Shown in pieces: positions 5,424 through 27,297 of a stretch of DNA of 64,000 bases. This DNA is from Desulfosoma sp. (GTDB lineage Bacteria; Desulfobacterota; Syntrophobacteria; Syntrophobacterales; DSM-9756). The DNA is taken from NCBI GenBank assembly GCA_037481835.1, contig JBBFKW010000002.1, positions 96,001 through 160,000 on the forward strand. Direction: 5' to 3'. Under the pieces are notes generated by a model that was not told where the DNA came from, ran no database searches, and worked only from the letters and a program-made list of their open reading frames with translations. Position 1 is the stretch's first letter. The number at the start of each line of letters is the position of its first letter. The translations under genes and the position numbers were made by a program.

Positions 5424-5446
5424 GGGACCGGAGCCTGGGAAAAACC

Positions 5447-8400: not shown

Positions 8401-8560
8401 GGATGAGACGGCCATTTACGAAACGGTCTTTTTCCCCGACGCTTACCGCCGCTTTTGCCAAACCCTGGGCTGGGAAAGGCCCTACGCCCTTCGAGGCACG
8501 GTGGAAGAATCCTTCGGCGCCGTAAGCCTCACCGTCTCCCATCTGGAATTCGTAGCCTAG
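5447..8560 (+). CDS. dnaE2: Error-prone DNA polymerase III alpha subunit (DnaE2/ImuC)
   Basis: PHP N-terminus, GRGSAAAS, FERFLNP, PDIDVDF, KIDLLG, YSFCKPHS and C-terminal OB fold. True start is ATG 5447, not 4595. Confidence 0.9.
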   Translation: MVCVVHTFYSFMRGVNSPEALCRCAVQRGHRAVLCADRNGFYGLVRFLAAARRFKVDPVVGVHLEHQGRHVIAIAKDLTGYEMLCPWVSRRHLDPGFSLERDFPEAGSHVAVISADAAFLRAVAPKAEAYVGVAAGAEGRRALRLARDLGLSPVAVHPVYFADPEDFSLHRLVRAIDTNCTLSTLDVRELASPEAWLKAPGDVERHFPHCPEAVARGEALMRECRAGWDRFETVFPHYGDDSGDRFDDLVRRCREGIVRRYGRSFPELEKRLAAELELIHAKGYVDYFLVVADIVGRRPIHCGRGSAAASLVSYLLGITHVDPLRHRLVFERFLNPHRTDHPDIDVDFPWDERDFLLHEVERIYGPQRFAMVANHVGFGARAAVRETAKVYGMPAAEIAEVTRRLSGWTRPERIGERIRSHPAFRGFALDPPWPEILALAGRLEGLPRHLSVHCGGMVLAPDRVDRRVPVERAAKGVRIIQWEKDQAEEGGLVKIDLLGNRSLGVIRDALAMVEENTGHRVDYASLNPLDDPDTQALLARGDTMGVFYVESPAMRQLQQKTRRGDFEHLVIHSSIIRPAANRYIQAYIERLHGAPYEPLHPALKDLLEETYGILVYQEHVVLCAMALAGFQWAEADGLRKVLSKKSREQIEDYRRRFEEGCRARGVGEDVIGALWDMFTSFAGYSFCKPHSASYALVSFKSAWLKVHYPAEFMAAVIANGGGYYTAFAYVSEARRMGLEVLGPDVNESRWTCWGKGRRIRLGLQLLRGIRREVVERLLEERSRNGPFVSLDDLFDRVPLQPSDATVLAKSGALDALAGPLHRARLLWWIHARCAHGKGRETRHAALMAPQGRHALEGSGGADGFRSASPMPCSNGSPRRSWKEWRGMARQESLSAFGGTAVRVPALPAPEAALLWRHEQETLGFVLSVHPLACYDAAYRKRPRPWVRAEAMPRLVGKTVWLKGWPITRKEVVTREGDPMAFVSFEDETAIYETVFFPDAYRRFCQTLGWERPYALRGTVEESFGAVSLTVSHLEFVA

Positions 8561-8663: not shown

Positions 8664-8790
8664 GGCCTGAACGAAAATTTTTCCGCTGCAATTCCCGACC
8701 CGGCACTTCCAAACACTGACCGCAAAAGAATCCTTGTTTCACGAAGGTCCGCTGCACGAAGGGTCTTGGCCGCACTTGTGCCGCAAAACT

Positions 8791-8817
8791 GTCACACAAC
8801 AGACATCGTGTCGTCAC
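8791..8817 (+). promoter_or_regulatory. Pho-box-like array upstream of small ORF/phoH
   Basis: GTCAC (8791), GACAT (8802), GTCAC (8813): 11-bp period. Confidence 0.65.
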
Positions 8818-8879
8818 ACGGCGTGGACAGACTCTTTGACAGAAGGATGAAAACCCGTACCCAAACAAGGGGGAGTCCC

Positions 8880-10375: not shown

Positions 10376-10713
10376 ACGCCGCGGACTCCTTTGGCCCAAA
10401 AACGGCCGTTGCCTTTGAGGATGTGACGCCCTGGGTTGGAGACGGTTGCACGACGGAATCCTTTCCCCCTTCATTGCGGGATTCGGATCGAGGCGCACCC
10501 ATTGCCTGGGAAGAGCATCGCGAACGGCGTGAAATGCCAAACCGTTGCTTTCGGCCAATTGAAGGAAGGCAAGTTCCGTGGGCGACCCGTCCAAAAGCTG
10601 GGTTGCACCCTGAGGGTCTACCTGCAGCCGGGCTCCATGCACAGATCGGCATGGCCCCGAGCGGTGCTATCTTGGCCAACTCGGTTCGCTTGTTTCGTTC
10701 GGCTTCAGAGGAC

Positions 10714-10766
10714 GTCACACCGTTGTCACAAAAGTGACGTCAAGGCGACACGAACGGAAAGATACT
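10714..10766 (+). promoter_or_regulatory. Pho-box-like array plus -10 element of the GT4 operon
   Basis: GTCACA (10714), GTCACA (10725), GACGT (10736), GACAC (10747), then GATACT (10761). A 10-bp hairpin (10777-10806) lies before the RBS. Confidence 0.7.
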
Positions 10767-10834: not shown

Positions 10835-12025
10835 ATGCCCGTCATCACCATCTGTGACGTGATCCAATTTCACAGCCCGCTCAGCGGTGGCATCAAACGC
10901 TACGTGACGGATAAGGCCCGTTTTGTGAAGTCGTTAAAGGATGTGAGCCATTGCGTGATTGTTCCCGGCTCAGAGGATCGCCTGGAAGTTTTTGGAAAGT
11001 CCAGGTTTTACTTTGTTCGGTCTCTGCCCATGGTGGGTGCCGTAGGCTACCGGCTGTTGCTTTCTCGCTGGAAGATCTTGGACATTCTGCGGAAGGAAAA
11101 ACCCCACGTCATTGAAATCGGGGATCCTTACTACTCGGCATGGGTGGCTTTGGCATATGGCGAAAAATCCCGGACTCCCACCGTCGGCTATTATCATTCG
11201 GATTTTCCACGAGCTCTGGATCGCACCGTAAAAAAATACTTCGGTTCCACCACGGCCCGGATGACCTCTTTTTATATCCACGGCTATCTCAGCCGGCTTT
11301 ACCGGCGCATGGATGCCGTCGTTGCGGCCACCCGCCGAGGTCGGGATGCCCTGGGCCATCTGGGCGTGCGCACGACACGCATCATTCCCTTGGGCGTCGA
11401 TCTCGAAATTTTCCACCCTCGGAGGGAGCGAGAGGAATTTCGAAGGACTCTGGGAATTTCTGCCTCGGGCCGTTTGATTCTCTACGTCGGGCGACTGGCT
11501 AGGGAAAAGAACGTGTCGAGCCTGGTGCCCATGATGGACCGACTCAATGGCAACGGAGTGCCCGCCGTTTTATGCATCGTGGGCGATGGGGAGCTTCGCA
11601 AGAAGCTCTGCAAGGCAGCCGCTCGGAGGTCCTACATCCGAATGATGCCCTATTGCCGATCCATGGAGACTCTGGCCCGCATTTATTCGGCGGCCGACCT
11701 GTGCGTCTATCCCGGCACGAGTGAGACTTTCGGCTACGTCTCCGTGGAAGCGCAAGCCTGTGGCACGCGGGTCTTGGTGGTCCAGGGCGGTGGGGCCGAA
11801 GAGACCGTGAAGGGTGAAGATCCGTGTTACCTGGCCCGGTCCTCCAATCCCGAAGATCTGGCCCAGGCGGCGGCCCTCTCCTTGACCACACCCGAATCGG
11901 AGGAGACGCGCCGGATGCGGCATTACCGGATCGCCGATCGGTTCCCGTGGCATCGAACCTTCGAACAGCTCCTCACTTTGTATCGGGAATTGGCCGATAA
12001 GGACCCGATTTCCTGGGCGGCTTGA
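10835..12025 (+). CDS. GT4 glycosyltransferase (putative lipid GlcNAc/hexosyl transferase)
   Basis: SGGIKRY, GYYHSD, IPLGVD, YVGRLAREK, ETFG..SVEAQACG; RBS GAGGAG. Confidence 0.88.
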   Translation: MPVITICDVIQFHSPLSGGIKRYVTDKARFVKSLKDVSHCVIVPGSEDRLEVFGKSRFYFVRSLPMVGAVGYRLLLSRWKILDILRKEKPHVIEIGDPYYSAWVALAYGEKSRTPTVGYYHSDFPRALDRTVKKYFGSTTARMTSFYIHGYLSRLYRRMDAVVAATRRGRDALGHLGVRTTRIIPLGVDLEIFHPRREREEFRRTLGISASGRLILYVGRLAREKNVSSLVPMMDRLNGNGVPAVLCIVGDGELRKKLCKAAARRSYIRMMPYCRSMETLARIYSAADLCVYPGTSETFGYVSVEAQACGTRVLVVQGGGAEETVKGEDPCYLARSSNPEDLAQAAALSLTTPESEETRRMRHYRIADRFPWHRTFEQLLTLYRELADKDPISWAA

Positions 12026-12044: not shown

Positions 12045-12800
12045 ATGGGGTCTTCGAACAAGGCTCTGATCGTCTCCTTCCATGATGTAACGCCCGTGAC
12101 TTACAACGCGTTTTCGGCCTTTGCAGAAGAATTGGCCGCCGTGGGTGTCTTTTCATTGACGTGGCTTATTGTGCCTTTGTGGCACGGGCATTTGTTACTC
12201 CCGCCCGAAAGCCCTTGCGCTCAGTACCTGCGCACAAGGCAGGCTCACGGCGACACCATGATCCTTCACGGCTTGACGCATCGGAAAACGGGCAGACCGT
12301 TGGGGGAATCTTTCAAGAACTTCATCATCCGGCGAGTGTATACCGCAAGGGAGAGCGAATTCTTGCATCTCCGCGAAGACATTTTGAGACGCAAAATCCG
12401 CCTGGGCAAGGCGATTTTGGAAGGGGCCGGAATTGGACCTACGGGATTCATCGCGCCGGGCTGGATTTTCCCGCCGGACGGCCACGGGATTCTCAAGGAG
12501 ATGGGTTTCCTTCTCACCGAAACTTACGGGCACATTCACGGGGTACAAACAAACCGTTCCGTTCGGGCGCCCGTGATCACGGCAAGCAGCCGCGCGTTGT
12601 GGCGGACGGTCCTTTCACGGGCTCTCGTGCCGGCATTGAGGCATCTATATTCGGATGCTGTGGTGGTGCGCGTGGCCATTCATCCCGCAGATCTTCATGA
12701 CTCCGCAATGCGCCGTCTTTGGCTGGAAGTCATCGGGAAACTGCTTGGCCGGCGAGAGCCCCGAACCCTGTCTTCGTGGGCGGCGAGCGTCGGGCTGTAA
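12045..12800 (+). CDS. DUF2334 / NodB-like deacetylase
   Basis: SFHDV, LHGLTH, ESEF, GFIAPGW, RVAIHPAD. Confidence 0.82.
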   Translation: MGSSNKALIVSFHDVTPVTYNAFSAFAEELAAVGVFSLTWLIVPLWHGHLLLPPESPCAQYLRTRQAHGDTMILHGLTHRKTGRPLGESFKNFIIRRVYTARESEFLHLREDILRRKIRLGKAILEGAGIGPTGFIAPGWIFPPDGHGILKEMGFLLTETYGHIHGVQTNRSVRAPVITASSRALWRTVLSRALVPALRHLYSDAVVVRVAIHPADLHDSAMRRLWLEVIGKLLGRREPRTLSSWAASVGL

Positions 12801-13804
12801 TGCTTTTTCACGGTTCCAGAGCGCCCCTTTACGAGGGGCGAAAACTTTTGAAGGCCGCATTCTTTGGAGCGGTTCTTTGCATTTTTCCCCCTCTTGTCGT
12901 CCTCCTCTCCCGGGACGGCCCCGAGATGTTGGAGAATTTCCACAGGGTGCCCATAGGGCTCCTCGGCCTTTTCTCATCCATGGTTTTCGGGGCGTGGGTG
13001 TGCCACAGCCTGCGCGTTCTGATCATGGTGAGGGCTCTGGGATACCCCTGTTCTTGGGTGGACGCCTTCTTTGCAGCTTTGGCCATGGAATTCGGTGTGG
13101 CAGCTACCCCGGGAGGCGTGGGCGGGGCTACCTTGAAGGTTGCCTCTCTCAAGAAACTGGGGATGCCGGTCGGGGAATCCCTGGGGCTTATCGCCACGGA
13201 TCTCCTCATTGATATGGTTTTTTTCCTTGCGACGGGAATTGCGGGCACATGGGCCGCCGTCACGGATCCCCGATGGCAGAAAATGTGGGCTTCGGTCACG
13301 GTAAGACGTCTCCCGGAGGTGGGCTGGGAAGCTGTGGCGGTATTCGGCGTGGCGGTTCTAATGAGTCTCCTGTGGATGAAAAAGAGCCGATCCAATCGAA
13401 CCGGCCTCGTGGGGGAAGTTCCGGGAGCTGCGGAGTCGTCGCCGAGAGAAAGCCTCTGGGGGAAGACTCTGGATGCCCTTCGCCTCGGGTGTCGTGTGGC
13501 GCCCCGATTGTTTCAAAACCATGCGGCCGCCGTTTTCACCTGTCTGTTTCTCTCGTTAGGCCAAGGATTATGCCGGTTCGGCATACTGCCCCTTTTGGTG
13601 CGTTTCTTCGATGCCGACTTCAGCCTCCTCCCTTTGTTTCCTCTCCAGGCGTTGCTCTGGGCTCTGTCCCTGGCCCTCGTGACTCCCGGCGGGGGCGGCG
13701 GTGTGGAAATTCTTTCGCTGGTGTTTCTCCGAGCCCTGCTGTCGACGGAAGAGGCGACCGTCATTGTTTTCGTGTGGCGTTTCTTTACCTTGCACCTGAA
13801 TTGA
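12800..13804 (+). CDS. Lysylphosphatidylglycerol-synthase TM (flippase-like) membrane protein; C-terminus possibly truncated
   Basis: ATPGGVGG, TPGGGGGVE, WRFFT motifs and many TM helices; TAATG coupling to the deacetylase. A hydrophobic in-frame tail continues past the TGA to 13855. Confidence 0.8.
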   Translation: MLFHGSRAPLYEGRKLLKAAFFGAVLCIFPPLVVLLSRDGPEMLENFHRVPIGLLGLFSSMVFGAWVCHSLRVLIMVRALGYPCSWVDAFFAALAMEFGVAATPGGVGGATLKVASLKKLGMPVGESLGLIATDLLIDMVFFLATGIAGTWAAVTDPRWQKMWASVTVRRLPEVGWEAVAVFGVAVLMSLLWMKKSRSNRTGLVGEVPGAAESSPRESLWGKTLDALRLGCRVAPRLFQNHAAAVFTCLFLSLGQGLCRFGILPLLVRFFDADFSLLPLFPLQALLWALSLALVTPGGGGGVEILSLVFLRALLSTEEATVIVFVWRFFTLHLN

Positions 13805-13971
13805 CTTGTTGGTTCTCTTGCCTTGTTCCGTCTTTTTCCGAAGGCTCATAGCTGAAACGCATCGCATCGGCGCAAAATCCTCTTCCAGCTTTTTGTGGCG
13901 CCCAATGGGGTCGGCCGCCTCATCGATGAACCTTGCGCGATGATTCGGAGTCGACTGAAATCTCTTTGCCT

Positions 13972-13998
13972 TTCATCAAATTGTCACGCCGTTGACGC
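13972..13998 (+). promoter_or_regulatory. Pho-box-like array upstream of PHP-GT4
   Basis: TTCAT (13972), GTCAC (13983), GACGC (13994): 11-bp period. Confidence 0.5.
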
Positions 13999-14062
13999 CT
14001 CCTGGAAACCTTCCCGTGGCAGAGTTGTCGCGAACGAAAACCTGAAAGGGGGAGGCGAACCC

Positions 14063-16525
14063 ATGAAGGCGGATCTGCACGTGCATTCCCGATTTTCCAA
14101 GAGACCCTCGCAATGGATTCTTCAGAAGCTTGGATGTCCGGAGAGTTTTACCCAACCCATAGACGTGTATCGCATCGCTCGAAAAAAGGGCATGGACTTG
14201 GTAACCATTACAGACCACAACACCATCGACGGTGTGGCCGAAATCGCTCACCTGCCCGGGGTCTTCGTCAGTGAAGAGGTCACCACCTATTTCCCGGAGG
14301 ATGGCTGCAAGGTGCACGTTTTGACCTACGGCCTTTCCCCCAATGAGCATCAGGACATCCAAAAGATTCGGGAAAATATTTATGATTTGGTGATGTATCT
14401 GAGGGAGAAGAAGATCGTTCATGCCGTCGCCCATCCCCTTTACAGTATCAATGACAAACTGACGGCGGACCATTTTGAAAAAATGCTCCTTCTGTTTCGC
14501 ATCTTTGAACTCAACGGCGCACGAAACGACGCCCAGAATCGCATCCTACGGGCCCTTCTGCCCGCATTGGACGGTTCCGTTCTTGGACGCCTTGCGGAGA
14601 AACACTGCGATCTTCCGGGTCCTGTGGAGATGGGTCGTAAATGGATCATCGGCGGGTCCGACGATCACAGTTCGCTCAACATCGCCCGGTTTTGGACGCA
14701 GGTTTCGGGGGCTTCGGACATTCCCTCCTTCTTGGAAGGGATCGTCACGGGCCAGGCCGGGGTAGAAGGGGCACCCGCCACTCCCTTGACCATGGCCCAC
14801 AATCTCTACGGGATCGCGTACCAGTACTACCGGGACCGCTTCGGCCTGGGTCGGCATCTCCACAAGGATCTGCTCCTGCAATTTCTTGAACGGGTCCTGG
14901 ATGTCCACCGCGAGGCTGAACCGAGATCCTGGACGAGTCGCGTTTACGATCTGGCTCGCACCAGTCGCTTTTGGCGACGGCGCACCGATGGGGAAAAGGA
15001 ACTTCCTCCGGTCCAGGCTTTCTGGAAAATGTCCCAAAGCCTCGTCGAAAAAGACGGGCGATTCATGGCCGCCGCCGTCGGCCGGTCCCGCCTGTCTGCT
15101 TCGGCGGCCGAAAAGCTCTGGTACGTTTTCGTGGAACAAGCCTGTGACGGCCTTCTGATGGAGCTTTGTCACCGTATCGGAACCCAACTGCGCAGCGCCA
15201 ACGTTTTTGATGTGTTCGGAAGTCTCGGTTCGGCGGGGGCGCTTTACAGTCTTATGGCGCCCTTTTTTGTCGCCTTTTCCCACTTTACCAAGGATCGAAT
15301 CTTGGCGGACGACATCGGGCGTCGTTTCCCAACTCTCGAAACTGCCGAGCCCGGGGCCGGCGGACTGGCCGTGGCCCACTTTTCCGACACGATCTTAGAA
15401 GTCAATGGTGTTGCCCGCACCTTGCTCCAGCAGCTCCAGGTGGCGCAGAGCTTGGGAAACCGTTTGACCCTTTTGACTTCCGATGACGGGTCCAAGGAAC
15501 TGCCTTCCGGCGTGGTGAATTTCAAACCGGTGGGCCGCTATGCCATGCCGGAATATCCCGAAATTTCCCTTAATATCCCCCCATTTTTAGAACTTCTTAG
15601 CTTCTGCTACAAAGAAAACTTCACCCAAATCCACGCCGCAACGCCCGGCCCCATGGGTTTGGCCGCTTTGGCCGTGGGCCGCATCCTCTCCCTTCCCATT
15701 GTTTCCACCTACCACACGGCCTTGCCACAATACGTGCGGCGATTGACGGGGGATGAGGGGCTGGAGGCCCTCACATGGCGATACGTGATATGGTATTATA
15801 ATCAAATGGATAAAATTTACGTTCCTTCGGCGGCCACGGGTGAAGAGCTTATCGGCCACGGGCTTCCGCCGGATAAGGTGTGCACCTACCCGCGGGGCGT
15901 GGATATCGAAAGGTTTTCTCCAGATAAGCGATCCGCCCGATTTCGCGTCCGGCACGGTATTGCGGACAAAACGGCCGCTGTGTATGTGGGGCGCCTTTCC
16001 AAGGAAAAGGATCTGGATGTTCTGTGCCGGGCGTTTCGCAAGCTTCACGCCAAACACCCGAAGACCGCTTTGGTTCTCGTGGGCGATGGGCCCTACCGCC
16101 AAGAATTGGAGAAAGCCCTCACAGGAACCTGTGCGGTCTTCACGGGCTATCTTTCGGGGGAAGCCCTGTCCGAGGCTTTTGCCTCATGCGACTTTCTTGT
16201 TTTTCCCAGCACCACGGACACCTTCGGCAATGTGGTCTTGGAAGCGCAGGCTTCGGGAATTCCCGTGATCGTAAGCGACCGGGGAGGTCCCCGGGAAAAC
16301 GTGGTTCCTGGGCGCACGGGCTGGATTTTTACCGGTCATGACGAAGAGAGTCTTCTGGGACGCATGGAATGGATGTGTATCAACACCGAAAGGCGTCGCG
16401 AAATGGGTCAACAAGCCCGAAAAAGCATGGAACGGCGCTCATTCCAGCGGGCTTTCCAGGCCATGTGGGAACTGTTCGAAGCGACTTCCGAAAAGGAAGA
16501 ACTGTCCCTTCCCGAAGCCGTTTAA
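14063..16525 (+). CDS. PHP phosphoesterase - GT4 glycosyltransferase fusion
   Basis: N-terminal DLHVHS, ITDHN, AHP, GGSDDH; C-terminal NGVARTL, YHT, RGVD, YVGRLSKEK, TDTFGNVVLEA; RBS GGAGG. Confidence 0.88.
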   Translation: MKADLHVHSRFSKRPSQWILQKLGCPESFTQPIDVYRIARKKGMDLVTITDHNTIDGVAEIAHLPGVFVSEEVTTYFPEDGCKVHVLTYGLSPNEHQDIQKIRENIYDLVMYLREKKIVHAVAHPLYSINDKLTADHFEKMLLLFRIFELNGARNDAQNRILRALLPALDGSVLGRLAEKHCDLPGPVEMGRKWIIGGSDDHSSLNIARFWTQVSGASDIPSFLEGIVTGQAGVEGAPATPLTMAHNLYGIAYQYYRDRFGLGRHLHKDLLLQFLERVLDVHREAEPRSWTSRVYDLARTSRFWRRRTDGEKELPPVQAFWKMSQSLVEKDGRFMAAAVGRSRLSASAAEKLWYVFVEQACDGLLMELCHRIGTQLRSANVFDVFGSLGSAGALYSLMAPFFVAFSHFTKDRILADDIGRRFPTLETAEPGAGGLAVAHFSDTILEVNGVARTLLQQLQVAQSLGNRLTLLTSDDGSKELPSGVVNFKPVGRYAMPEYPEISLNIPPFLELLSFCYKENFTQIHAATPGPMGLAALAVGRILSLPIVSTYHTALPQYVRRLTGDEGLEALTWRYVIWYYNQMDKIYVPSAATGEELIGHGLPPDKVCTYPRGVDIERFSPDKRSARFRVRHGIADKTAAVYVGRLSKEKDLDVLCRAFRKLHAKHPKTALVLVGDGPYRQELEKALTGTCAVFTGYLSGEALSEAFASCDFLVFPSTTDTFGNVVLEAQASGIPVIVSDRGGPRENVVPGRTGWIFTGHDEESLLGRMEWMCINTERRREMGQQARKSMERRSFQRAFQAMWELFEATSEKEELSLPEAV

Positions 16526-16558
16526 CAACACCCCGTCAAAGAGACCGCGAAAGGACGA

Positions 16559-18391
16559 GTGCCCATGGATACGGCGGACAAAGGCGCCATCCGCTTGCTT
16601 CCACGGACTGCCGGCTTGTGGCGTCCCGTGCTCAAATGTTTGGATAAAATAACGGCGTTGGAGCCTCTGGAATGCACCTACCGAAGCCTTCCCCGTGCGA
16701 TGGATCCGGCCGGATTTGTGAACGAGGCCTTGAGGGCGCTTGGGGTGGGCCCGGTGGTCCTCGGAAACGAACAGTTTCCGGCCTCGGGCCCGATTTTAGT
16801 GGTGGCCAATCACCCGTTCGGCGGCGTGGAAGGCCTTCTGATCGCCCGTCTTCTTTTGGAGGTGCGCCCAGACGTGAAGATCATGGCCAACGCCCTCTTG
16901 GAACACATTCCGGAGATGGCCCCTTTGATTATCGGTATAGACCCCTTCGGGAACCGAAAGTCTCTGGACCGTAACATCGCGCCTCTGCGCCGTTGCGTGG
17001 CGTGGCTCAAGGACGGAGGCGTTCTGGTCGTGTTCCCGTCGGGCACCGTGTCCCATTTCCATGTGCGAAAGCGGCGCATTACGGATCCGCCGTGGAGCCC
17101 GAGCGTGGGGCGGCTGGTCCTGTGGAGCCGGTGTTCGGTTGTGCCGATCCATTTCGATGGTGCCAACAGCTTGTTATTCCAGCTCCTTGGCCTGTTTCAT
17201 CCGCGTTTGCGAACCCTTCTTTTGCCGAGGGAGTTGCACAACAAGCGTGGACACGAAGTCCGGCTGACCGTGGGCCGAACGATTCCCTTTAAAAAGCTCT
17301 CAGAAATCGGGTCTCCGGAAGGGATCACGGAATATTTGAGAGCGCACACATACGCCCTGGGAATTGCCGGAAACACAAATCGAGGGAGGGGCACGGTTCC
17401 GCGATGGCGTCACGTGGCCCAGAGGCCGTTACGTCCGTGCGCCCCCATCGGGGACGCGGTTCATCCATCTCTCTTGCGTGAGGACATACAGCGCCTGGAC
17501 CCCGCCCAGTGTCTTTTCCAAAGCGGAGCCTACAGAGTCTGGTGTGCCGAAGCGGTGCAGATCCCTCATATTCTCCAGGAAATCGGGCGCCTTCGGGAGA
17601 CGACCTTTCGCGAAGTGGGAGAGGGGACTGGACGGTCTGTGGATTTGGACCGATTCGACCGACATTACGACCACCTGTTCTTGTGGAATGAGGAAACTCA
17701 AAAAATTGCGGGGGCGTATCGCATCGGTCGGGGCGATCGGCTTCTCGGTCAGATGGGCTTGGAAGGTTTTTATACGCACACGCTTTTTAAGTATGAGGCT
17801 GGATTTCGACCTTTTTTGGAAAAGAGCCTGGAGCTGGGGCGTTCTTTCGTCCGGTCCGAATACCAAAAGACCTACGCCCCGCTGTGGTTTCTCTGGAAAG
17901 GGATCGGCCGTTACGCGGCACGCCACGAAAGGTATCGGTTTCTGCTCGGCCCGGTGAGCATCAGTGATGCCTATCACGTGCTTAGTCGGCATCTCATTCT
18001 CATGTATCTGCGGCACAATCATTTTTCGGAACAATGGGCCCGCTGGGTCTGTGCGCGACGGCCGTGGCGCCGCATGCCCTCCATCCCTTGGAATGCTCGC
18101 ACCCTATGTCGGAATCTTACGGATATGGACCTCTTTTCGGAGTTGATCGCAACCATCGAAAAGCGCGAAAGGGCGTTGCCCATCCTTCTTCGCCAATACA
18201 TCAAACTTGGGGGAAAGGTTTTGGGTTTCAACGTGGATCCGAAATTTTCGGATGTCTTGGATGCTCTGATTGTCGTGGATCTTGCCCAGGCCGAGCCCTC
18301 CCTTCTCGAAAAAACCATGGGCCAGGAAGCCGCCCGTCGTTTCCTGAGCGTCCACCAGGCCCCGTCCCTCAGTCTGCCGATGTGTGCGTGA
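16559..18391 (+). CDS. olsF: Bifunctional acyltransferase (PlsC-like + GNAT), OlsF-like ornithine-lipid synthase
   Basis: NHPFGGVEG and VFPSG in the N-half; GRLRETTFREVGEGTG, DLDRFD, GAYRIG, LELGRSFV in the C-half. Confidence 0.75.
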   Translation: MPMDTADKGAIRLLPRTAGLWRPVLKCLDKITALEPLECTYRSLPRAMDPAGFVNEALRALGVGPVVLGNEQFPASGPILVVANHPFGGVEGLLIARLLLEVRPDVKIMANALLEHIPEMAPLIIGIDPFGNRKSLDRNIAPLRRCVAWLKDGGVLVVFPSGTVSHFHVRKRRITDPPWSPSVGRLVLWSRCSVVPIHFDGANSLLFQLLGLFHPRLRTLLLPRELHNKRGHEVRLTVGRTIPFKKLSEIGSPEGITEYLRAHTYALGIAGNTNRGRGTVPRWRHVAQRPLRPCAPIGDAVHPSLLREDIQRLDPAQCLFQSGAYRVWCAEAVQIPHILQEIGRLRETTFREVGEGTGRSVDLDRFDRHYDHLFLWNEETQKIAGAYRIGRGDRLLGQMGLEGFYTHTLFKYEAGFRPFLEKSLELGRSFVRSEYQKTYAPLWFLWKGIGRYAARHERYRFLLGPVSISDAYHVLSRHLILMYLRHNHFSEQWARWVCARRPWRRMPSIPWNARTLCRNLTDMDLFSELIATIEKRERALPILLRQYIKLGGKVLGFNVDPKFSDVLDALIVVDLAQAEPSLLEKTMGQEAARRFLSVHQAPSLSLPMCA

Positions 18392-18438
18392 TCCCCATCG
18401 TTTTCTGAATTTGGCGCCCAAAGAATCGCGGCGGATTT

Positions 18439-18465
18439 GTCACGAAAACGTCACACGTCCGTCAC
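18439..18465 (+). promoter_or_regulatory. Pho-box-like array upstream of arsC
   Basis: Three perfect GTCAC at 18439, 18450 and 18461. Confidence 0.75.
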
Positions 18466-18516: not shown

Positions 18517-18963
18517 ATGGAACGGAAAATTCTTTTTATTTGCGTGCACAATAGCGGCCGAAGCGTCATGGCCGAAGCCTATGCCAACACGTTCGGCCAG
18601 GGAAGAGTCCGGGCGGAAAGCGCCGGTTTCGAACCCAGGCCCGTACTTCCGGGAATCGTGGAGGTCATGCGGGAGGAGGGCATCGATGTCAGCCAACATC
18701 AGCCGAGAAGCGTTTTCGATCTCTATCGGCAAGGAAAAACGTATGACGCCGTGGTCACCGTCTGCGATGGTACGGAGGAGTCGGCGTGCCCCATCTTTCC
18801 TGGGATAGCCCTTCGCGACCACTGGCCTTTTCCGGACCCGTCAAAGGTCGAAGGCCTTTCGGAGGAAGAGCGAAAAGCGAAGCTTCGGGCCATTCGCGAC
18901 GCGGTGAAAGCCAAGGTCCGGCAATGGATTCATTCTCTGGATGCCGCAGAGAAGGACCTGTAA
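18517..18963 (+). CDS. arsC: Thioredoxin-type arsenate reductase / LMW-PTP family
   Basis: CVHNSGRS P-loop, VTVC....ACP.FPG resolving cysteines, HWPFPDP. Confidence 0.85.
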   Translation: MERKILFICVHNSGRSVMAEAYANTFGQGRVRAESAGFEPRPVLPGIVEVMREEGIDVSQHQPRSVFDLYRQGKTYDAVVTVCDGTEESACPIFPGIALRDHWPFPDPSKVEGLSEEERKAKLRAIRDAVKAKVRQWIHSLDAAEKDL

Positions 18964-19029: not shown

Positions 19030-19485
19030 TCATGAGTTGACGCACTCCGGATAGCGCCACTGGGGGACAACGAGGGTCTCGGCGGCAGGGGCGTCTAGAG
19101 GAAGGGCGGCCGAAGCGGCTCCTCTGGGTGCGCCGCTTCGCTTTTCCAGTTCGCGCTGGCAATCGATGCACAGCCGTGCAGTGGGCTGGACTTCCAGCCG
19201 TTGCGGCTGGATGGCATCGCCACATCGGTCGCAAACCCCGAAGTCGCCGTCTTTCAGCCTTTTGAGAGCGCTTTCGATTTCCCAAGAAAGCTGCCGGTAC
19301 CGGTTGCGGAGTCGCCGGAGGGTTTCCCTCTGATGTTCCAGGACGGCCAGATCGGCCTCATCCATGGGTTCTCCCATGCGCCCGTGTTCGTCTTGAGAAT
19401 TTTCAAGGGATTGCAGGGATTCCATCAATGTGTCCCGGGCTGAACATAGCAGGGTTTCAAAGCGCTTCCGTGTGAACGGATCCAT
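19030..19485 (-). CDS. DksA/TraR C4 zinc-finger transcription factor
   Basis: Coiled coil with DEAD tip; CDRC..RL..P.ARLCIDC; RBS AAGGAGG. Confidence 0.88.
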   Translation of the reverse strand: MDPFTRKRFETLLCSARDTLMESLQSLENSQDEHGRMGEPMDEADLAVLEHQRETLRRLRNRYRQLSWEIESALKRLKDGDFGVCDRCGDAIQPQRLEVQPTARLCIDCQRELEKRSGAPRGAASAALPLDAPAAETLVVPQWRYPECVNS

Positions 19486-20212
19486 TAAAACATCCTCCTT
19501 GGTTCATGTCAGAGGTTGAGGCAAAAGGCTCTAAGGAAACCACCCGATCCGCCGCCTGCCGACGGACCAGGGCATCGTGGTAGACACCCAGGATGGCCGC
19601 ACCCCGCTGCCGGGCTTCGATGATGAGGGTGACCACGGTGTCCCGATTGCGAGGATCCAGGGATGCGGTGGGTTCGTCCAAGAGCAATATGGGATGCCTG
19701 CACACAAAGACTCGGGCGATATTCACCCGTTGTTGTTCCCCGCCGGAAAAGGTCGTGGGGGACAATCCCCAAAGGCGGCGAGCGATACCGAGGCGATGGA
19801 GCATGGTTTCGGCCCTTTCACGGGCTTCATTGGGAGCGACGCCCTGGTCGAGAAGCGGCTCCATGACGGCGTCGAGAGTGGACACTCTGGGGATGATGCG
19901 AAGGAACTGGCTCACGTAGCCGATGACATCCCGGCGCACCCTGAGCACGGTGCGGGCTGATGCGGTGGCGAGGTCGATGGTCTTCGTGCCGCACCGGATG
20001 AGGATTCGACCGTGATCCGCAGCGTAGTTGCCATAGATCATGCGCAGGACGGAGCTTTTCCCAATCCCGGATGGGCCTATGAGGGCGACGCTTTCCCCCC
20101 GCATGACTTCGAGGCTTAAACCGTTGAGGATGCAGAGTCGCACGCCGCCCTGCCCGTGGAGCGTGAAGGTCTTGGCGACGCATTCCACGCGAATCATCCA
20201 TTCCTTTGCCAT
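19457..20212 (-). CDS. phnL: C-P lyase ATPase PhnL
   Basis: KTFTLHGQGG, GPSGIGKS, IYGNY, GYVSQFLR.IPRV, PTTFSGGEQQRVNIAR. Confidence 0.95.
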   Translation of the reverse strand: MAKEWMIRVECVAKTFTLHGQGGVRLCILNGLSLEVMRGESVALIGPSGIGKSSVLRMIYGNYAADHGRILIRCGTKTIDLATASARTVLRVRRDVIGYVSQFLRIIPRVSTLDAVMEPLLDQGVAPNEARERAETMLHRLGIARRLWGLSPTTFSGGEQQRVNIARVFVCRHPILLLDEPTASLDPRNRDTVVTLIIEARQRGAAILGVYHDALVRRQAADRVVSLEPFASTSDMNQGGCFNGSVHTEAL

Positions 20213-20228
20213 GGCCCTCTCCTCGGGG

Positions 20229-21044
20229 TTAAACGCTCAGACGGGACGAGACAAGGAGTTGGGTGTACGGGTGCTGAGGATCATCGAGGACCCGATCCGT
20301 GAGTCCGTGTTCCACGATGCGCCCTTGGAACATGACGAAAAGGCGATGGGCGAGCAGCCGAGCTACGGTAAGATCGTGGGTGACCATGACCACCGACAAG
20401 GCGAGCTCGCGGACGAGGCGACGCATGAGGTCCAGGAAGCGGGCCTGAACGGAGACATCCAAACCGCTGGTGGGCTCGTCCATGAAAACAATCCGGGGGT
20501 TGGTGGCCAGGTTCTTGGCGATCTGAAGCCGCTGAAGCATACCGCCCGAATAAGTGCACGGAAGATCATCCAACCGCTTCAGATCCAGTTCGACGCGCTC
20601 CATCCAAAAGGACGCACACTCCCGCAGGTGCCGGAAACGACGTTCCCCCTCGGCCAGCAGCCTTTCGCAAATGTTCCCGCCGGCGCTGACACGCATGCGA
20701 ATCCCTTCCTCCGGCCGTTGAAAGACCACGCCGATGGCGGTGCGCAGCAGCCGGCGGCGAAGCGACGCATCCATGTGGTAGAGATCGACGAAATCCGAGC
20801 CGTTTCGATAAAGAACCGTTCCTTTGGTCGGGGCGAGAAGGCCCGAAAGGCACCGAAGCAAAGTCGTCTTCCCCGAGCCCGATTCCCCCACCACGCAAAC
20901 GACTTCGCCGGGGTATACGTCGAGGTCCACATTCAAGCATCCAACGCGAGTGCCGTACCGACGGGTGAGGCTTCGAGCGCGCAAAATGGGGTCGTCATCC
21001 ATGATTGTCGCCGATGGAAGCCTGTCACGGTGCGCCGTGGTCAT
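20229..21044 (-). CDS. phnK: C-P lyase ATPase PhnK
   Basis: GESGSGKT, VSAGGNI.ERL, SGGM.QRLQIA, GLDVSVQAR, VLDDPQHPYTQLLVSS; ATGA overlap with phnJ. Confidence 0.95.
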   Translation of the reverse strand: MTTAHRDRLPSATIMDDDPILRARSLTRRYGTRVGCLNVDLDVYPGEVVCVVGESGSGKTTLLRCLSGLLAPTKGTVLYRNGSDFVDLYHMDASLRRRLLRTAIGVVFQRPEEGIRMRVSAGGNICERLLAEGERRFRHLRECASFWMERVELDLKRLDDLPCTYSGGMLQRLQIAKNLATNPRIVFMDEPTSGLDVSVQARFLDLMRRLVRELALSVVMVTHDLTVARLLAHRLFVMFQGRIVEHGLTDRVLDDPQHPYTQLLVSSRLSV

Positions 21045-22039
21045 GGGCCCTCCTTTCCGGACGACGGTTCGAAGACGTCTTGGCGGTTTGTTAGGCCTTG
21101 GGTGGAGGGGCTGTCCGAAGAGTGAGCGACCGAAGCCTTCGCCCGTCGTTTTCGGCACGCGTCCGTATCCGAGCACACGAACATGCGGTGTCCCTCATCG
21201 TCCACGATGATTTCGTCCAGGTAATGGTCGTCGGCGCCGCACAGGCGGCATCGTTCCTTCCATCCTTCCACCGCAAAGGGAACATCCTCGAAGTCCAGGG
21301 GCTGTACGTCGGTGTAGGGTGGAACGGCATAGATGCGCTTTTCGCGGCCCGCTCCGAAAAGTTGCAAAGCCGGCATCTGGTGCATCTTCGGCGTGTCGAA
21401 CTTGGGGATGGGCGAGGGACTCATGACGTAGCGATTGTTCACCAGGACGGGGTAATCGAACGCTACGCCGATACGCCCCGTGCGCACCACGTCTTCATAG
21501 AGTTTGACGTACATGAGGCCGTAGTCCGCCAGGGCGTGCAGGGTTCGGCATTCTTCTTCCCGGGGTTCGATGAATCGCAGAGGTTCGGGAATGGGGACTT
21601 GGTAGACCAGGATTTGGCCTTCCCGCAGCGGCGTTTCGGGAATGCGGTGCCTCGTTTGAATGATCGTCGCCTCCTCGGTGACGGTGGTCGTCCTCACGTC
21701 GGCCGTTTTTCGAAAAAAATGCCGAATGCTCACGGCGTTGGTCGTATCGTCCGCTCCTTGGTCAATCACTTTAAGGACGTCGTCAGGCCCGATGAGCGAA
21801 GCCGTGATTTGGATTCCACCGGTGCCCCAGCCGTAGGGGAGCGGAATCTCCCGGCTGGCGAAGGGAATCTGGTGCCCGGGTATGGCCACGGCTTTGAGGA
21901 TGGTGCGTCGGATCATGCGCTTGGTCGTTTCGTCGAGAAAGGCTGGGTTATAACCCATAAGGCCGCGCCACGATTTTCTCTCCGCAGGCTGTCCCGTGAT
22001 GGTCTTAGCCAATGGGGGCGTGGGGGATGGCGATTCCAT
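21041..22039 (-). CDS. phnJ: C-P lyase radical-SAM subunit PhnJ
   Basis: PYGWGTGG glycyl-radical motif, IQTRHRIPE, CxxC...CSDTDAC. Confidence 0.97.
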   Translation of the reverse strand: MESPSPTPPLAKTITGQPAERKSWRGLMGYNPAFLDETTKRMIRRTILKAVAIPGHQIPFASREIPLPYGWGTGGIQITASLIGPDDVLKVIDQGADDTTNAVSIRHFFRKTADVRTTTVTEEATIIQTRHRIPETPLREGQILVYQVPIPEPLRFIEPREEECRTLHALADYGLMYVKLYEDVVRTGRIGVAFDYPVLVNNRYVMSPSPIPKFDTPKMHQMPALQLFGAGREKRIYAVPPYTDVQPLDFEDVPFAVEGWKERCRLCGADDHYLDEIIVDDEGHRMFVCSDTDACRKRRAKASVAHSSDSPSTQGLTNRQDVFEPSSGKEGP

Positions 22040-22048
22040 GGGAGCACC

Positions 22049-23149
22049 TTATCTTTCAGCCCCATCTTGGGGGACGGGGTCTTTGGGGGAACGGCGCACA
22101 TGACACAGTTCGGCCTGAAAGTCCACGTAATGGGGCAGCTTCAAATGCTGGACGAAGCCCGAGGCTTCCACGTTGTCGCTATGTCTCAGCACGAATTCCT
22201 GATCTTGGGCGGGATAGCGCACCTCTTCACCCAACTCTTGGGATCGCAGGGCGCGGTCCACGAGGGCCATGGCCATGGCCTTTCTTTCGTTGGCGCCGAA
22301 GACCAAACCGTACCCTTGCACGAAACCAGGGCAACCGGGGGAGCGCTGCTCGTTTCGGCTGAGCATCACGCACTCGGTGACCAAAATGGATCCGATGGTC
22401 ACGGTGAAGCCCGTCTCCGGCAGTTCAACGGTCACGGGCACATAGCCCATGCGGATTTCGCCTACGAATGGATGGCCTCGGAAACCAAACCCTCTTTGGG
22501 CGGAGTACGCCATTCCCACGAGGAAGCCCTCGTCTGCCCGGCCCAGGGTTTGCAGGCGGGCGCTGCGCGGCGCGGGAATCTCCAAGGGTTCTTGGGTCAC
22601 GTCCCGGGGTTCCAGGGCTTCGTCCGCTTTTGACTTTTCCACCAGGTGGGTGTCCCGAAGAAGATCGGCAAGGCGTGGTGCCCGCTGGGCCAAGGGAACG
22701 GATCGATCCGCCAGATAGACCACGTTTTCGGGGACGGCCTTGGATTGGAGAAGGGAGAAATCGAGCAGCCTGTGCGTGTAATCGTAGGTCGGGCCGAGGA
22801 GCTGACCTCCTGGAAGATCTTTGAAGGCTGCGGAAATACGCCGAAGAAGGCGCATGGCCCCCGTGTCCAGAGGTGTGGAAACACCGAGGCGCGGCAGGGT
22901 GGTTCGATAGGCGCGAAGAAGGAAGGCGGCTTCCACGAGATCCCCCTGGGCCTGTTTCACGGCCAGGGCGGCCAGTTCTCGATCATAGAGCGATCCTTCA
23001 GCCGCCACGCGATCCACGGCGAGTCCCAATTGCTCCTGGATCTGCTTCACATCGAGCTCCGGAAGCCGAATGTCGCCGCGCCGCTTTTCCGCAAGGAAGC
23101 GATGGGCGTTGGCAATGGCTCTTTCACCGCCCTTTACTGCGACGTACAT
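22049..23149 (-). CDS. phnI: C-P lyase subunit PhnI
   Basis: MYVAVKGGE start, RRISA.FKDLPGGQ.LGPT.DYTHRLL, HLKLPHYVDFQ. Confidence 0.97.
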   Translation of the reverse strand: MYVAVKGGERAIANAHRFLAEKRRGDIRLPELDVKQIQEQLGLAVDRVAAEGSLYDRELAALAVKQAQGDLVEAAFLLRAYRTTLPRLGVSTPLDTGAMRLLRRISAAFKDLPGGQLLGPTYDYTHRLLDFSLLQSKAVPENVVYLADRSVPLAQRAPRLADLLRDTHLVEKSKADEALEPRDVTQEPLEIPAPRSARLQTLGRADEGFLVGMAYSAQRGFGFRGHPFVGEIRMGYVPVTVELPETGFTVTIGSILVTECVMLSRNEQRSPGCPGFVQGYGLVFGANERKAMAMALVDRALRSQELGEEVRYPAQDQEFVLRHSDNVEASGFVQHLKLPHYVDFQAELCHVRRSPKDPVPQDGAER

Positions 23150-23778
23150 GAGAGACCTCCCACGGGCGATACATGGGTTGACCGGGGGACAGCCACCAGG
23201 TCGGCTTGGTGAGTAAAAAGCACATCCAATCCTCTGGGATAGAGGGCTTCCAGGCTTTGCCGCCAGTCCCAAAAGCTTTTCGGGCAACCGCGGACGCACA
23301 GGGCGCTCAGCCCTTGAATCCCTGGACCCGAAAGAAAAAAACCGTCCGCCACACCCGGGCTTGCCGAAGGGCTCAAAGACGCGACTTGCACGATGACGGT
23401 GGCGCCCAGGTAAGGTTCGTGTTCGGTGCCCATGGGAAAATCCACGGGGAAGGAAAGGCCGGATGGATCCGTGATCAAGGCAAGGTCAGCTTCCCGGGGG
23501 TCGCTTACCGTTCGCACCCGGGTGACCGACTGGATAGCCCATCGGGATTCATGGTCGATGGGCAGGTCGGTCCAAAGCCGTATCGACTCGTCGCCCAAGG
23601 TGAGGAGGACGACCCAGGATGCGGCATGAAGGTCCCGGGGGATCCCGCTCGGCTCTCGAAAAGTCACAAGCCGTCCGGGGTGAGCCATGGCGGTGAGCAG
23701 GGTTCGGAAAGCTTCCTGGGATTCCAAAATGGGTTCTCGAAAACCCATGGCGCGGATGACCTCGGCATAACTTGGCAT
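23134..23778 (-). CDS. phnH: C-P lyase subunit PhnH
   Basis: SQ..FR.LL.AMA.PG, GT...P..GAT, LSGPGI, YPRGLD. Confidence 0.93.
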   Translation of the reverse strand: MPSYAEVIRAMGFREPILESQEAFRTLLTAMAHPGRLVTFREPSGIPRDLHAASWVVLLTLGDESIRLWTDLPIDHESRWAIQSVTRVRTVSDPREADLALITDPSGLSFPVDFPMGTEHEPYLGATVIVQVASLSPSASPGVADGFFLSGPGIQGLSALCVRGCPKSFWDWRQSLEALYPRGLDVLFTHQADLVAVPRSTHVSPVGGLSCTSQ

Positions 23779-23842
23779 GGTTACTCCAAAACGTTTTCCG
23801 TGGCCTTTCGGGGACGGCCGCAGCAGGCGATGAGTGTGCGGT

Positions 23843-24313
23843 TCATTCGCCGCGAACCAAGGTCACGAATTCCACGCGCGTCGCCGCCACTCGGCCGGCT
23901 TCGCGCCGTTGCGCTTCCTGTTTTCGTCTCCACAGGGGATCGACGAAGGCAGCCGTGAGGTGTTCCCTCTTTTTCGGGTCCTGAAGTTGGGCGTCCAAAA
24001 CGGCGGCGATTTCCGCATGGCGCGGGCGCCGCCCCAAGACCATGGCTGTTCCCAAGCGACCGTCCCGGTCACTGACCGAGCATCGCGTCACGGTCACTTC
24101 TCCCACGTAGAAACGTTCCCCTTCGCCGCCGACTCGGGCCTGTACCATGAGCAACCCGATTTCGGGGCCATGAACCACGGCGTATTCAGGTTTGGGCTCG
24201 TAGCGATCCCAAAAGAGTTGGAGATCCTCCGAATCCGCTTCTGCCAAAACGGTCATCCATCGGCGGCGGGCCTCTTGCATTTCTTTTTCAACACCGGATG
24301 AGATGGGTTCCAT
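23843..24313 (-). CDS. phnG: C-P lyase subunit PhnG
   Basis: PEIGL.MV..R.GG.G..F.VGE.TVTRC, AAVLDA, ATRVEF.TLVRGE. True start 24313 lies inside the long track ORF. Confidence 0.93.
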   Translation of the reverse strand: MEPISSGVEKEMQEARRRWMTVLAEADSEDLQLFWDRYEPKPEYAVVHGPEIGLLMVQARVGGEGERFYVGEVTVTRCSVSDRDGRLGTAMVLGRRPRHAEIAAVLDAQLQDPKKREHLTAAFVDPLWRRKQEAQRREAGRVAATRVEFVTLVRGE

Positions 24314-24324
24314 GGGGTGCCCTC

Positions 24325-25470: not shown

Positions 25471-25534
25471 TACTTTTCCGCCGAAGGGCTGCCGCAGGGA
25501 TCAGGGCGGGAGCCGGCTTCGGCAGCACAAGGAT

Positions 25535-26425: not shown

Positions 26426-26466
26426 TTTCGCTCTCCTCCTTTTTCAATAATCTGCCTCATGATCCC

Positions 26467-27297
26467 TTACGCACAGGCCAGGGCCTCCTCCCTTGCCACG
26501 GGGCATCGACCCTGATAGATGTGAGCCACCGTCTCCTCGTCCAAAAGAGACGCCTCACCGTCAAAGACCACCCGCCCTGCGCTCATTCCCATGACCCTTT
26601 TGGCGTAACGTTTGACGAAGTCCAAATGATGCAGGTTGACCACCACGGGAATGCCTTTCCTTTCGTGAATTTCCTGAAGGAGGCTCATGACCGTCGAAGC
26701 GCTTCGCGGGTCCAGGCTGGCAATGGGTTCATCGGCCAAAATGACATCCGGTTCCTGGGCCAGGACCCGGGCGATGGCCACGCGTTGCTGTTGTCCGCCC
26801 GAGAGGCGGTCGGCGCGCTGAGAGGCCAGGTTCGCAATGCCCACTTCAGCCAGGCAGTGCAGGGCGTAGTCTTTTTCGTGTTTGGAAAAGAACCGGGCGA
26901 GGGACAAGGTGTGAAGCACGGGGGAATTTTGAAACCGCAAACGCCCCGCCAGAACGTTTTCCAAAACCGTCAACCTACTGACCAAGTGAAACTGTTGGAA
27001 AATCATGCCAACCCGGCGCCTCACCCGCTGCAAGGCCTTGCCGGACACGGTGGTGATGTCCTCGCCAAGAAGGATCAGCCGCCCGGATGTGGGCTCCAGA
27101 AGCCTGTTGAGGCAGCGCAGCAGGGTGGACTTTCCGGCTCCGGAACACCCGATGATAATGAGAAAATCGTCGGCGAGGAGATCGAAACTGACGTTGTCGA
27201 CCGCTAAGGTTCCCGATGGGTAGCGCTTGACCAAATTTCGGACCTGGAAGACGGGGTCCGCGTTGAGGCAGTTCAGGGACGACGCTGCTAGACGCAT
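26467..27297 (-). CDS. phnC: Phosphonate ABC ATPase PhnC
   Basis: [48 protein letters not shown]. Confidence 0.95.

Follow-up and report, generated by a model that had tools for sequence, protein, structure and literature searches.

One of the major ways in which microorganisms save phosphorus is to exchange their phospholipids for phosphorus-free lipids. In the proteobacterial PlcP-Agt pathway of lipid renovation, a phosphoesterase and a glycosyltransferase (GT) are encoded together in one operon with a Pho box, members including Pseudomonas aeruginosa PA3219/PA3218 and PA0842, Phaeobacter MED193, Sinorhizobium meliloti and the Agrobacterium tumefaciens Agt (PMC8528852, PMC4796936). The proteobacterial release of diacylglycerol (DAG) is assigned to PlcP. 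Among sulfate reducers and related organisms of anoxic sediments, no components but a GT and OlsF have so far been named. The gene considered here lies in 64 kb of a Desulfosoma sp. contig (JBBFKW010000002.1, positions 96,001 to 160,000; the whole of this stretch is termed the window), and encodes a protein in which an N-terminal half of the PHP phosphoesterase type is fused, via a helical domain, to a GT of family GT4.

The sulfate reducer for which the relevant genetics are available is Desulfovibrio alaskensis G20, in which, under phosphate limitation, >90% of the phospholipids are replaced by monoglycosyldiacylglycerol (MGDG), glucuronosyl-diacylglycerol (GADG) as well as ornithine lipids (PMC5193443). 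A mutant in Dde_3613 makes no glycolipids (MGDG, GADG) under phosphorus limitation and retains more phospholipid, and a mutant in Dde_3661 (olsF) is without ornithine lipids (Bosak 2016, PMC5193443). In that work the Dde_3613 product is annotated as having a PHP N-terminus and a group-1 GT; the main text treats it as an Agt homolog, with the terms PHP, phospholipase and PlcP being absent from that text (PMC5193443). In the literature searched, the only link between PHP and GT domains was that for Dde_3613 in Bosak 2016, where the PHP half is unremarked; the sole mention of PHP in the lipocone paper is unrelated.

It is well supported that the window protein is a Dde_3613-type synthase making glycolipids in phosphate starvation. 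The protein has a CHARACTERISED relative, P0349, an 816-residue 'glycosyltransferase [Oleidesulfovibrio alaskensis]', which was found with a profile of Desulfovibrionales members and is similar over the full length (49% identity across 819 aligned residues). Resting on the genetics of this counterpart, the GT4 half is very probably a DAG glycosyltransferase. An earlier note on this DNA had placed the protein in phosphate-starvation lipid remodelling, which is borne out by the Dde_3613 phenotype, by recurrent Pho-box-like sites and by Pst, PhoU, PhoH2, Phn and OlsF neighbours. The family is, however, less novel than that note assumed, in that genetics have already identified one member as the enzyme that makes the glycolipids of a sulfate reducer starved of phosphate.

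The protein itself is as the earlier note described it, an 820-residue product with PHP ligands and a GT4 enzyme, the open reading frame, the motifs and the Pfam GT4 domains all being present. It comprises three parts, i.e. a PHP barrel (residues 1-236), a helical domain (241-421) and the GT4 region (436-813). The reading frame is a single long one on the + strand (13895-16525, the stop codon ending at 16525), within which the ATG at 14063 was taken as the start because all aligned homologs begin there, giving the N-terminus MKADLHVHS; a longer form starting at GTG 13895 is not supported, as 31 of 31 aligned homologs begin MK.DLHVHS. A protein search returned 2416 relatives, the best 120 of which are 809-872 residues long with at least 98% coverage, and the fusion architecture thus appears, at the level of sequence, to be fixed. 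The closest named relatives are from Desulfosoma, Thermodesulforhabdaceae and Desulfacinum (64-69% identity).

The N-terminal half contains the complete set of PHP metal-ligand motifs (HxH, D-H, E, H, H, DxH), in the form of H6-V-H8, D51-H52, A123-H124-P125 and S199-D200-D201-H202, together with E72 and H85. These motif residues are invariant in alignments of 32 full-length and 42 N-terminal sequences. Among 150 representatives clustered at 50% identity, 136 cover the PHP ligands, and 123 of these 136 keep all eight core ligands (H6, H8, H52, E72, H85, H124, D200, H202), a degree of conservation that argues for a working active site. The distorted (beta/alpha)7 barrel of the PHP superfamily is likewise predicted, both by AlphaFold2 (AF2) and by Foldseek: the AF2 model of residues 1-445 (predicted local distance difference test, pLDDT, 89.7; predicted template modelling score, pTM, 0.87) has a barrel at 1-236 followed by an all-helical region at 241-421, and a Foldseek search of the PDB gave 19 matches at E<=1e-3, the top one being the PHP domain of RNase AM (7ug9, 1.2e-7). 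Others include TM0559 (2anu), EndoQ (5zb8), BAD_1165 (3o0f), Cv1693 (2yb1), Vibrio RNase AM (9etk) and PolC, the last through its PHP domains; all the classifiable matches are PHP enzymes or polymerase PHP domains, PsfC (7rty) not being classifiable from the listing.

Profile methods, by contrast with motifs and fold, are nearly blind to this half of the protein. The Pfam PHP model (PF02811) matches with 13.8 bits (E 0.073), its gathering score being 26.4, phmmer and profile searches of the PDB gave nothing for the N-terminal half below E 0.19, and the 25 best NCBIfam families for the fusion protein are all GT families, so missing the N-terminal half; PHP_C (PF13263) matches in a few homologs. 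Because sequence models alone miss the domain, its assignment rests on the motifs and the fold, from which the N-terminal half is predicted to be a structurally and chemically intact PHP phosphoesterase belonging to a very divergent subfamily. The only Pfam-significant PHP match in the window is elsewhere, i.e. in the PHP domain of a DnaE-type polymerase after a Y-family polymerase (IMS) at 4251-8560 (+), which is unrelated.

The GT4 half is strongly supported as an intact retaining transferase of the GT-B type. Both of its Rossmann domains score above the Pfam cutoffs (PF13439, Glyco_transf_4; PF00534, Glycos_transf_1), and an acidic-x7-Glu motif, a feature of GT4 C-terminal domains that goes by the name of E-x7-E motif, is present as D719-x7-E727 with both residues invariant in the alignment. 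The best structural matches are to MshA, BshA, PimB', HepE, sucrose-phosphate synthase (SPS) and PimA, with TM-scores on target of 0.7-0.83 for MshA, BshA, PimB' and PimA.

Between the two halves, the earlier note had seen a helical linker. The helices are real, with pLDDT values mostly of 80-95 across 241-421, but in the AF2 model they form a folded domain of 180 residues rather than a loose linker. The pTM of the full-length model indicates a defined arrangement of the domains. When residues 1-430 and 435-820 were supplied as separate chains, the predicted complex had an ipSAE of 0.69, with the best of three controls reaching 0.01; the mark used for ipSAE is reached by 116 of 157 solved complexes and by 2 of 215 mismatched pairs, these counts being rough since own alignments were used. 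Three runs agreed in at least 75% of contacts, with partner pLDDT of at least 81. As the docked chains are halves of one polypeptide, the result speaks for a fixed intramolecular interface only. In it, helical residues 241, 354-373 and 398-412 touch GT4 residues ~490-519 and 541-543, with helices 346-377 and 383-421 predicted to face the GT4 N-domain. In GT-B enzymes the N-terminal domain is the acceptor-binding side, and the interface is placed on that side because the residues contacted lie in the GT4 N-terminal domain. These models strongly support the prediction that the PHP barrel is held rigidly, by way of the helical domain, against the acceptor-side domain of the GT4.

The hydrophobic stretch 384-408 was considered as a transmembrane anchor and rejected; its Kyte-Doolittle mean over 19 residues is 1.42 (the sole higher value, 1.62, sits in the GT4 Rossmann core), and its hydrophobicity is explained by its predicted packing on the GT4 N-domain. 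All 32 aligned sequences have basic and aromatic residues in the loop 285-312 of the helical domain, which has a net charge of +1 to +7 (median +4); over the same sequences the median net charge is +6 for the helical domain and -6 for the GT4 half. Such a loop, on a positively charged domain, would fit peripheral binding to an anionic membrane.

A Pho-box-like array, behind which the earlier note had placed the gene, is indeed readable upstream of the ATG (Table 1). It scores 11/14 against the Escherichia coli consensus, a value that 26 of 1460 pieces of 250 nt drawn at random from related loci also attain and that, as at least 11/14, is found in 5 of 74 upstream regions. Because scoring against this consensus alone is weak, a degenerate pattern of two half-sites, TKTCAYN5TKTCAY, was used with random-window controls. 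The pattern matches 13971-13987 with 0 mismatches, but was partly shaped on that very site, so independent support comes from the other promoters and the other genomes. The window contains 8 occurrences against 2.24 expected (0 of 100 shuffles reach 8), and 6 of the 8 sit where phosphate-related units would have their promoters, the clearest array being that of the phn genes; some 20 kb of the window has the look of a Pho-regulon island. A further match, at 4117 before the IMS polymerase gene, is probably due to chance. Elsewhere, a site falls between -300 and -47 relative to the start of the fusion gene in 11 of 73 loci, compared with 1.46 +/- 1.10 expected and at most 5 in any of 200 random draws; three matches nearer the start (-11 or -29), which are partly caused by the ATGAAA start, fall outside the counted interval.

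These observations bear on where the DAG that is glycosylated comes from. The phosphate must leave the sn-3 position of glycerol before a sugar can be attached there. That the PHP half supplies the DAG is the most economical reading because it accounts together for this chemistry, the pairing of PlcP and GT in operons, the docking on the acceptor side, the membrane-type surface and the absence of another candidate nearby. With regard to the last of these, the earlier note's statement that the window has no PlcP-type gene stands, there being no Pfam Metallophos match among its 100 open reading frames of at least 180 residues. In the 80 related loci compared (the best 80 of at least 599), the 32 most recurrent neighbour families include no metallophosphoesterase family. 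For G20, no phospholipase is among the entries examined of Cluster I of the fitness table, and no metallophosphoesterase, phospholipase or calcineurin is in the part examined of the gene table, which lists genes with fitness data (PMC5193443).

Mechanistically, a PhoB-type promoter would probably drive the fusion gene together with the OlsF-like gene that follows it. The PHP half would then hydrolyse a phosphate ester, either of a glycerophospholipid, in the manner of a phospholipase C, or of phosphatidic acid, so freeing DAG at the membrane surface, where the adjoining GT4 site would glycosylate it using a UDP-sugar. One polypeptide would thereby do the work of the separate proteobacterial PlcP and Agt, and the operon as a whole would swap phospholipids for glycolipids and ornithine lipids. 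That the fusion is a Pho-regulated bifunctional enzyme, in which GT4 glycosylates DAG and the PHP half supplies it, is a proposal in which we have about even confidence. The interpretation in the earlier note, which made the PHP domain a PlcP substitute channelling DAG to the GT4, is partly supported. A fuller version is offered tentatively, namely that the N-terminal module represents a new class of membrane-lipid phosphoesterase, either a phospholipase C or a phosphatidate phosphatase with the PHP fold, docked through its helical domain on the acceptor side of an Agt-type GT4, such that a single Pho-regulated polypeptide converts phospholipid to glycolipid. The evidence would fit either of the two activities.

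Several points weigh against a DAG-supplying role for the PHP half. No result in this analysis or in the literature searched has the PHP domain acting on a lipid or producing DAG, and the structures closest to it are of phosphoesterases acting on nucleotides or nucleic acids (RNase AM, Cv1693, EndoQ, polymerase PHP domains), at 11-17% identity. In 13 of the 136 representatives at least one ligand is lost. The G20 transposon mutant cannot separate the PHP and GT4 halves, and the identity of P0349 with Dde_3613 itself is one that we infer. The absence of PlcP covers 64 kb here, flanks of +/-7 kb elsewhere and part of the G20 table of genes with fitness data; moreover, P. aeruginosa without PlcP still makes some GADG, meaning that DAG can come from elsewhere (PMC8528852, PMC4796936). 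As regards regulation, the Pho-box calls are pattern matches to putative sites, and 62 of the 73 loci have no match directly upstream of the fusion gene, 3 of these 62 having one before an upstream operon of methyltransferase and phosphatidylserine-decarboxylase-like (PSD-like) genes.

Because the nearest PHP structures act on nucleotides, a soluble substrate remains a serious rival, if an unlikely one overall. On this account the GT4 half is the glycolipid synthase, and the PHP half acts on a soluble phosphate ester (the UDP or UMP that the transferase leaves behind, a pAp-like compound, or a phosphorylated headgroup released by another phospholipase), recovering phosphate or relieving product inhibition. 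The best matching structures are nucleotide-directed (7ug9, 9etk, and 2yb1, which has AMP and phosphate bound), and phosphate scavenging would fit the Pho context. At such low identities, however, the likeness is that of the shared barrel, and a scavenging enzyme would have no need to be joined rigidly, through a conserved interface, to the acceptor side of a GT, nor of a basic and aromatic loop of the membrane type. UDP is in any case recycled by kinases in bacteria, and the separate DAG-producing enzyme that a soluble substrate would leave to be supplied was not found near the gene.

It is improbable that the PHP half has ceased to work as an enzyme in the pathway and acts instead as a scaffold, as an oligomerisation or membrane-targeting module, or as a sensor of metal or phosphate through which the GT4 is regulated. 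Inactive scaffolds are known among the PHP domains of Pol III alpha subunits, and both the 13 representatives without one or more ligands and the failure of the Pfam PHP model to recognise the domain could be read in this way. Retention of eight ligands by 123 of 136 proteins that share <50% mutual identity, and their invariance in the 42 N-terminal sequences, is nevertheless typical of catalysis.

The order of the two reactions might alternatively be reversed, as with sucrose-phosphate synthase/phosphatase or MshA/MshA2, the GT4 glycosylating a phosphorylated acceptor and the PHP half then removing the phosphate, so that the product would be either a glycoside in solution or some lipid that is not MGDG. 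Fusions of a GT with a phosphatase that follow this logic exist, and the close GT4 structures include MshA, the acceptor of which is inositol-1-phosphate, and sucrose-phosphate synthases. This order is quite improbable: the G20 mutant is specifically without MGDG and GADG, the sugar in these lipids occupies the position of the phosphate in phosphatidic acid or glycerol 3-phosphate, such that dephosphorylation has to come first, and the neighbouring genes are lipid and Pho genes. Least probable of all is that the fusion works with the gpgSDF-like genes directly upstream on lipids derived from phosphatidylglycerol (PG; glucosaminyl-PG type) rather than on DAG, for while the best NCBIfam match of the GT4 half is the GlcNAc-PG synthase model (150 bits, positions 86-345/361), all the scores are far below their cutoffs, the two units are 258 nt apart, each with its own Pho-box-like site, and of 80 loci at most 1 has the module together with the fusion.

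The features of the region are collected in Table 1.

Table 1. Positions of the fusion gene, its parts, the adjoining lipid genes and the Pho-box-like sites, numbered from the first nucleotide of the window
Feature	Position	Strand	Basis or remark
Pho-box-like site of the PIN-PhoH2 gene (8881/8900-10375)	8836, within 8788-8852		pattern match
Pho-box-like site of the gpgS-like gene	10713-10729		107 nt before ATG 10836
gpgS-like GT4	10836-12025	+	NCBIfam 257 bits vs cutoff 480
gpgD-like DUF2334 deacetylase	12045-12800	+	NCBIfam 171 bits vs cutoff 280
gpgF-like flippase	12800-13804	+	NCBIfam 74 bits vs cutoff 320; start codon ATG overlapping the stop of the gpgD-like gene (12800)
Pho-box-like array, three direct half-sites with 11-bp spacing	13969-13997	+	CTTTCAT-caaa-TTGTCAC-gccg-TTGACGC; 66-94 nt upstream of the ATG
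Ribosome-binding site GGGGGAGG	14048-14055	+	7 nt before ATG 14063; read from the sequence
PHP-helical-GT4 fusion gene (P0003)	14063-16525	+	820 residues; full-length AF2 model, mean pLDDT 85.2, pTM 0.82
PHP phosphoesterase barrel, residues 1-236	14063-14770	+	ligand motifs, AF2 model, Foldseek
Helical domain, residues 241-421	14783-15325	+	AF2 secondary structure, predicted interface residues
Basic/aromatic low-confidence loop, residues 285-312 (…SRVYDLARTSRFWRRR…)	14915-14998	+	net charge; pLDDT 43-62; candidate segment for contact with the membrane
GT4 N-terminal (acceptor-side) Rossmann domain, residues 447-617	15401-15913	+	Pfam PF13439, 95 bits
GT4 C-terminal (nucleotide-sugar) domain, residues 629-787	15947-16423	+	Pfam PF00534, 122 bits; invariant D719-x7-E727
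OlsF-like bifunctional acyltransferase, 610 residues	16559-18391	+	PlsC-like residues 40-267, GNAT-like residues 345-580
Pho-box-like site of the arsC/low-molecular-weight-phosphatase-like gene (18517-18963)	18438-18454		pattern match
phn array, four direct half-sites TGTCAC/TTTCAC/GGTCAC/CGTCAC with 11-bp spacing	29134-29172	-	two pattern sites, 29145 and 29156

Downstream, the OlsF-like gene starts 33 nt after the stop codon of the fusion gene. The PlsC plus GNAT acyltransferase that the earlier note had reported at this distance is thus present, Pfam recognising both halves (Acyltransf_2/Acyltransferase and Acetyltransf_5). Against the NCBIfam OlsF model (NF052615) the protein scores 377 bits (E 1e-112, cutoff 620) over model positions 49-562/570. 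Because the gap is so short, the two genes are probably co-transcribed; no terminator-like site was called between them. Pairing with OlsF does not hold as a rule of the family. In tblastn searches of the 80 loci (at least 50% coverage, within 10 kb of the fusion gene), OlsF was found at 7, PhoH2 at 9, ArsC-like proteins at 5 and Phn proteins at 2. The gpgSDF-like module appears beside the fusion in at most one locus (L001, the gpgF-like gene only). The arrangement in the window, with gpgSDF-like genes upstream and an olsF-like gene downstream, is unusual for the fusion family.

When neighbours within 7 kb of the fusion gene in the same 80 loci were clustered in an unbiased manner, the recurrent families included, from the Pho regulon, PstB (16 loci), PstS (9), PhoH2 (7), OlsF and a PhoB-like regulator (6 each), and PhoU, alkaline phosphatase and PstA/C (5 each). 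Two mutually exclusive operon types were also apparent. In one (25-27 loci), a Methyltransf_24 protein and a 234-residue protein of the phosphatidylserine decarboxylase family are encoded directly upstream in the order methyltransferase, PSD-like protein, fusion; the PSD-like gene is present at 27 loci (L001, L002, L004, L009, L012 and 22 others) and both genes at 25. In the other, a 436-residue radical SAM protein adjoins the fusion in the order fusion, radical SAM protein (24 loci; L005, L007, L008, L028 and 20 others).

Other genes of the window are related to phosphorus or lipids. A complete-looking cluster for C-P lyase and phosphonate use occupies 19457-29104 (-), with genes for a GNAT protein, PhnM-like, PhnC, PhnD and PhnE-like proteins, PhnG, H, I and J, and two ABC-type ATPases. 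Beyond the phn promoter region, a 307-residue open reading frame at 30280-31203 (+) matches DUF3419 in part (E 9e-17, positions 32-116/385 of the model) and has no match in NCBIfam. The DUF3419 family includes the betaine-lipid enzyme BtaA, and the reading frame may be a third gene for a phosphorus-free lipid or just a methyltransferase-like relative. A second flippase-like gene (LPG_synthase_TM, of the MprF flippase-domain type; Pfam 118 bits) lies at 58823-59941 (-), far from the lipid cluster.

The fusion is widespread. A genome scan with one genome per species gave at least 599 stretches, 598 of 599 of which encode a relative. By label, the best 80 loci comprise 71 from Thermodesulfobacteriota or 'delta proteobacterium', 4 from Hydrogenedentota, 2 unclassified and 1 each from Anaerolineales, Nitrospirales and Pseudomonadota. 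The N-terminal module searched alone gave 1632 clusters at 50% identity, with 63 of the best 150 being at least 750 residues long. Many shorter proteins resemble fragments, and 12 of 15 checked proteins of 516-670 residues keep the first half of the GT4. Many cluster representatives of 590-670 residues, including P0127, P0130, P0134, P0136, P0139, P0140 and P0149, contain the PHP-helical module and the first GT4 half only, stopping at the point where a nucleotide-sugar domain would be expected to start. These may be fragments from the ends of contigs, or else a genuine form that is truncated or split. Look-alikes of the N-terminal module also occur on their own in the ESM Atlas, namely a 433-residue 'hypothetical protein' cluster that is commonest in Verrucomicrobiota (score 0.93, 211/256 features), and shorter ones of 305-382 residues.

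A known kind of glycolipid synthase carries a conserved and apparently active phosphoesterase domain that has drawn no comment in the literature searched. Were the PHP half to be the missing source of DAG, the PHP superfamily would gain a lipid substrate and the two-gene PlcP-Agt pathway a one-protein counterpart. It would also explain the origin of DAG in those sulfate reducers, syntrophs and other anaerobes that have the fusion and no adjoining PlcP, and would provide a marker by which the saving of phosphorus through glycolipids could be recognised in thousands of genomes of anaerobes. Should the PHP half instead be nucleotide-directed or regulatory, the family would be that of a known glycolipid synthase with an accessory domain.

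Comparison with described systems locates the fusion more precisely. The upstream trio shares with the P. aeruginosa GpgSDF system for glucosaminyl-phosphatidylglycerol synthesis, as described by Khan et al. 2025 (PMC12713373), the order GT4, DUF2334 deacetylase and flippase-like protein, but its scores are well below the cutoffs and it is outside the conserved neighbourhood of the fusion; it is a separate unit, with a Pho-box-like site of its own. The downstream gene shares with OlsF (NF052615; G20 Dde_3661) an N-terminal PlsC-like and a C-terminal OlsB/GNAT-like half, although with a score below the cutoff the amino acid of its lipid's head group may be ornithine or a different one. The PHP half has in common with solved PHP enzymes (RNase AM/YciV, 7ug9 and 9etk; 2anu; 3o0f; 2yb1; 5zb8) the barrel and the set of His/Asp/Glu ligands, with only 11-17% identity and TM-scores of 0.35-0.62 on target; the fusion has, in addition, an invariant W18 / P26-E27 insert, C82-K83, the 180-residue helical domain and the fused GT4.

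With Dde_3613 the window gene shares the three-part architecture and the setting of phosphate limitation. G20 also has an OlsF homolog, the tag of which (Dde_3661) is 48 tag numbers away from Dde_3613, as opposed to a gap of 33 nt in the window. PlcP has the calcineurin-like metallophosphoesterase fold. The fusion protein has no Metallophos (PF00149) match and its fold is that of PHP; it can thus at most work like PlcP, and is not a member of the PlcP family, nor is homology claimed. The likeness to PlcP-Agt is one of organisation and chemistry, i.e. a Pho-box-controlled unit in which a DAG-yielding phosphoesterase is coupled to a GT that makes MGDG or GADG from UDP-glucose or UDP-glucuronate (PMC8528852, PMC4796936). 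There, however, the phosphoesterase is a separate protein, whereas the candidate in the window has the form of a PHP barrel, to which the GT is joined by way of the helical domain. By analogy, the fusion would be the expected next step in the coupling of phosphoesterase and GT that such operons represent.

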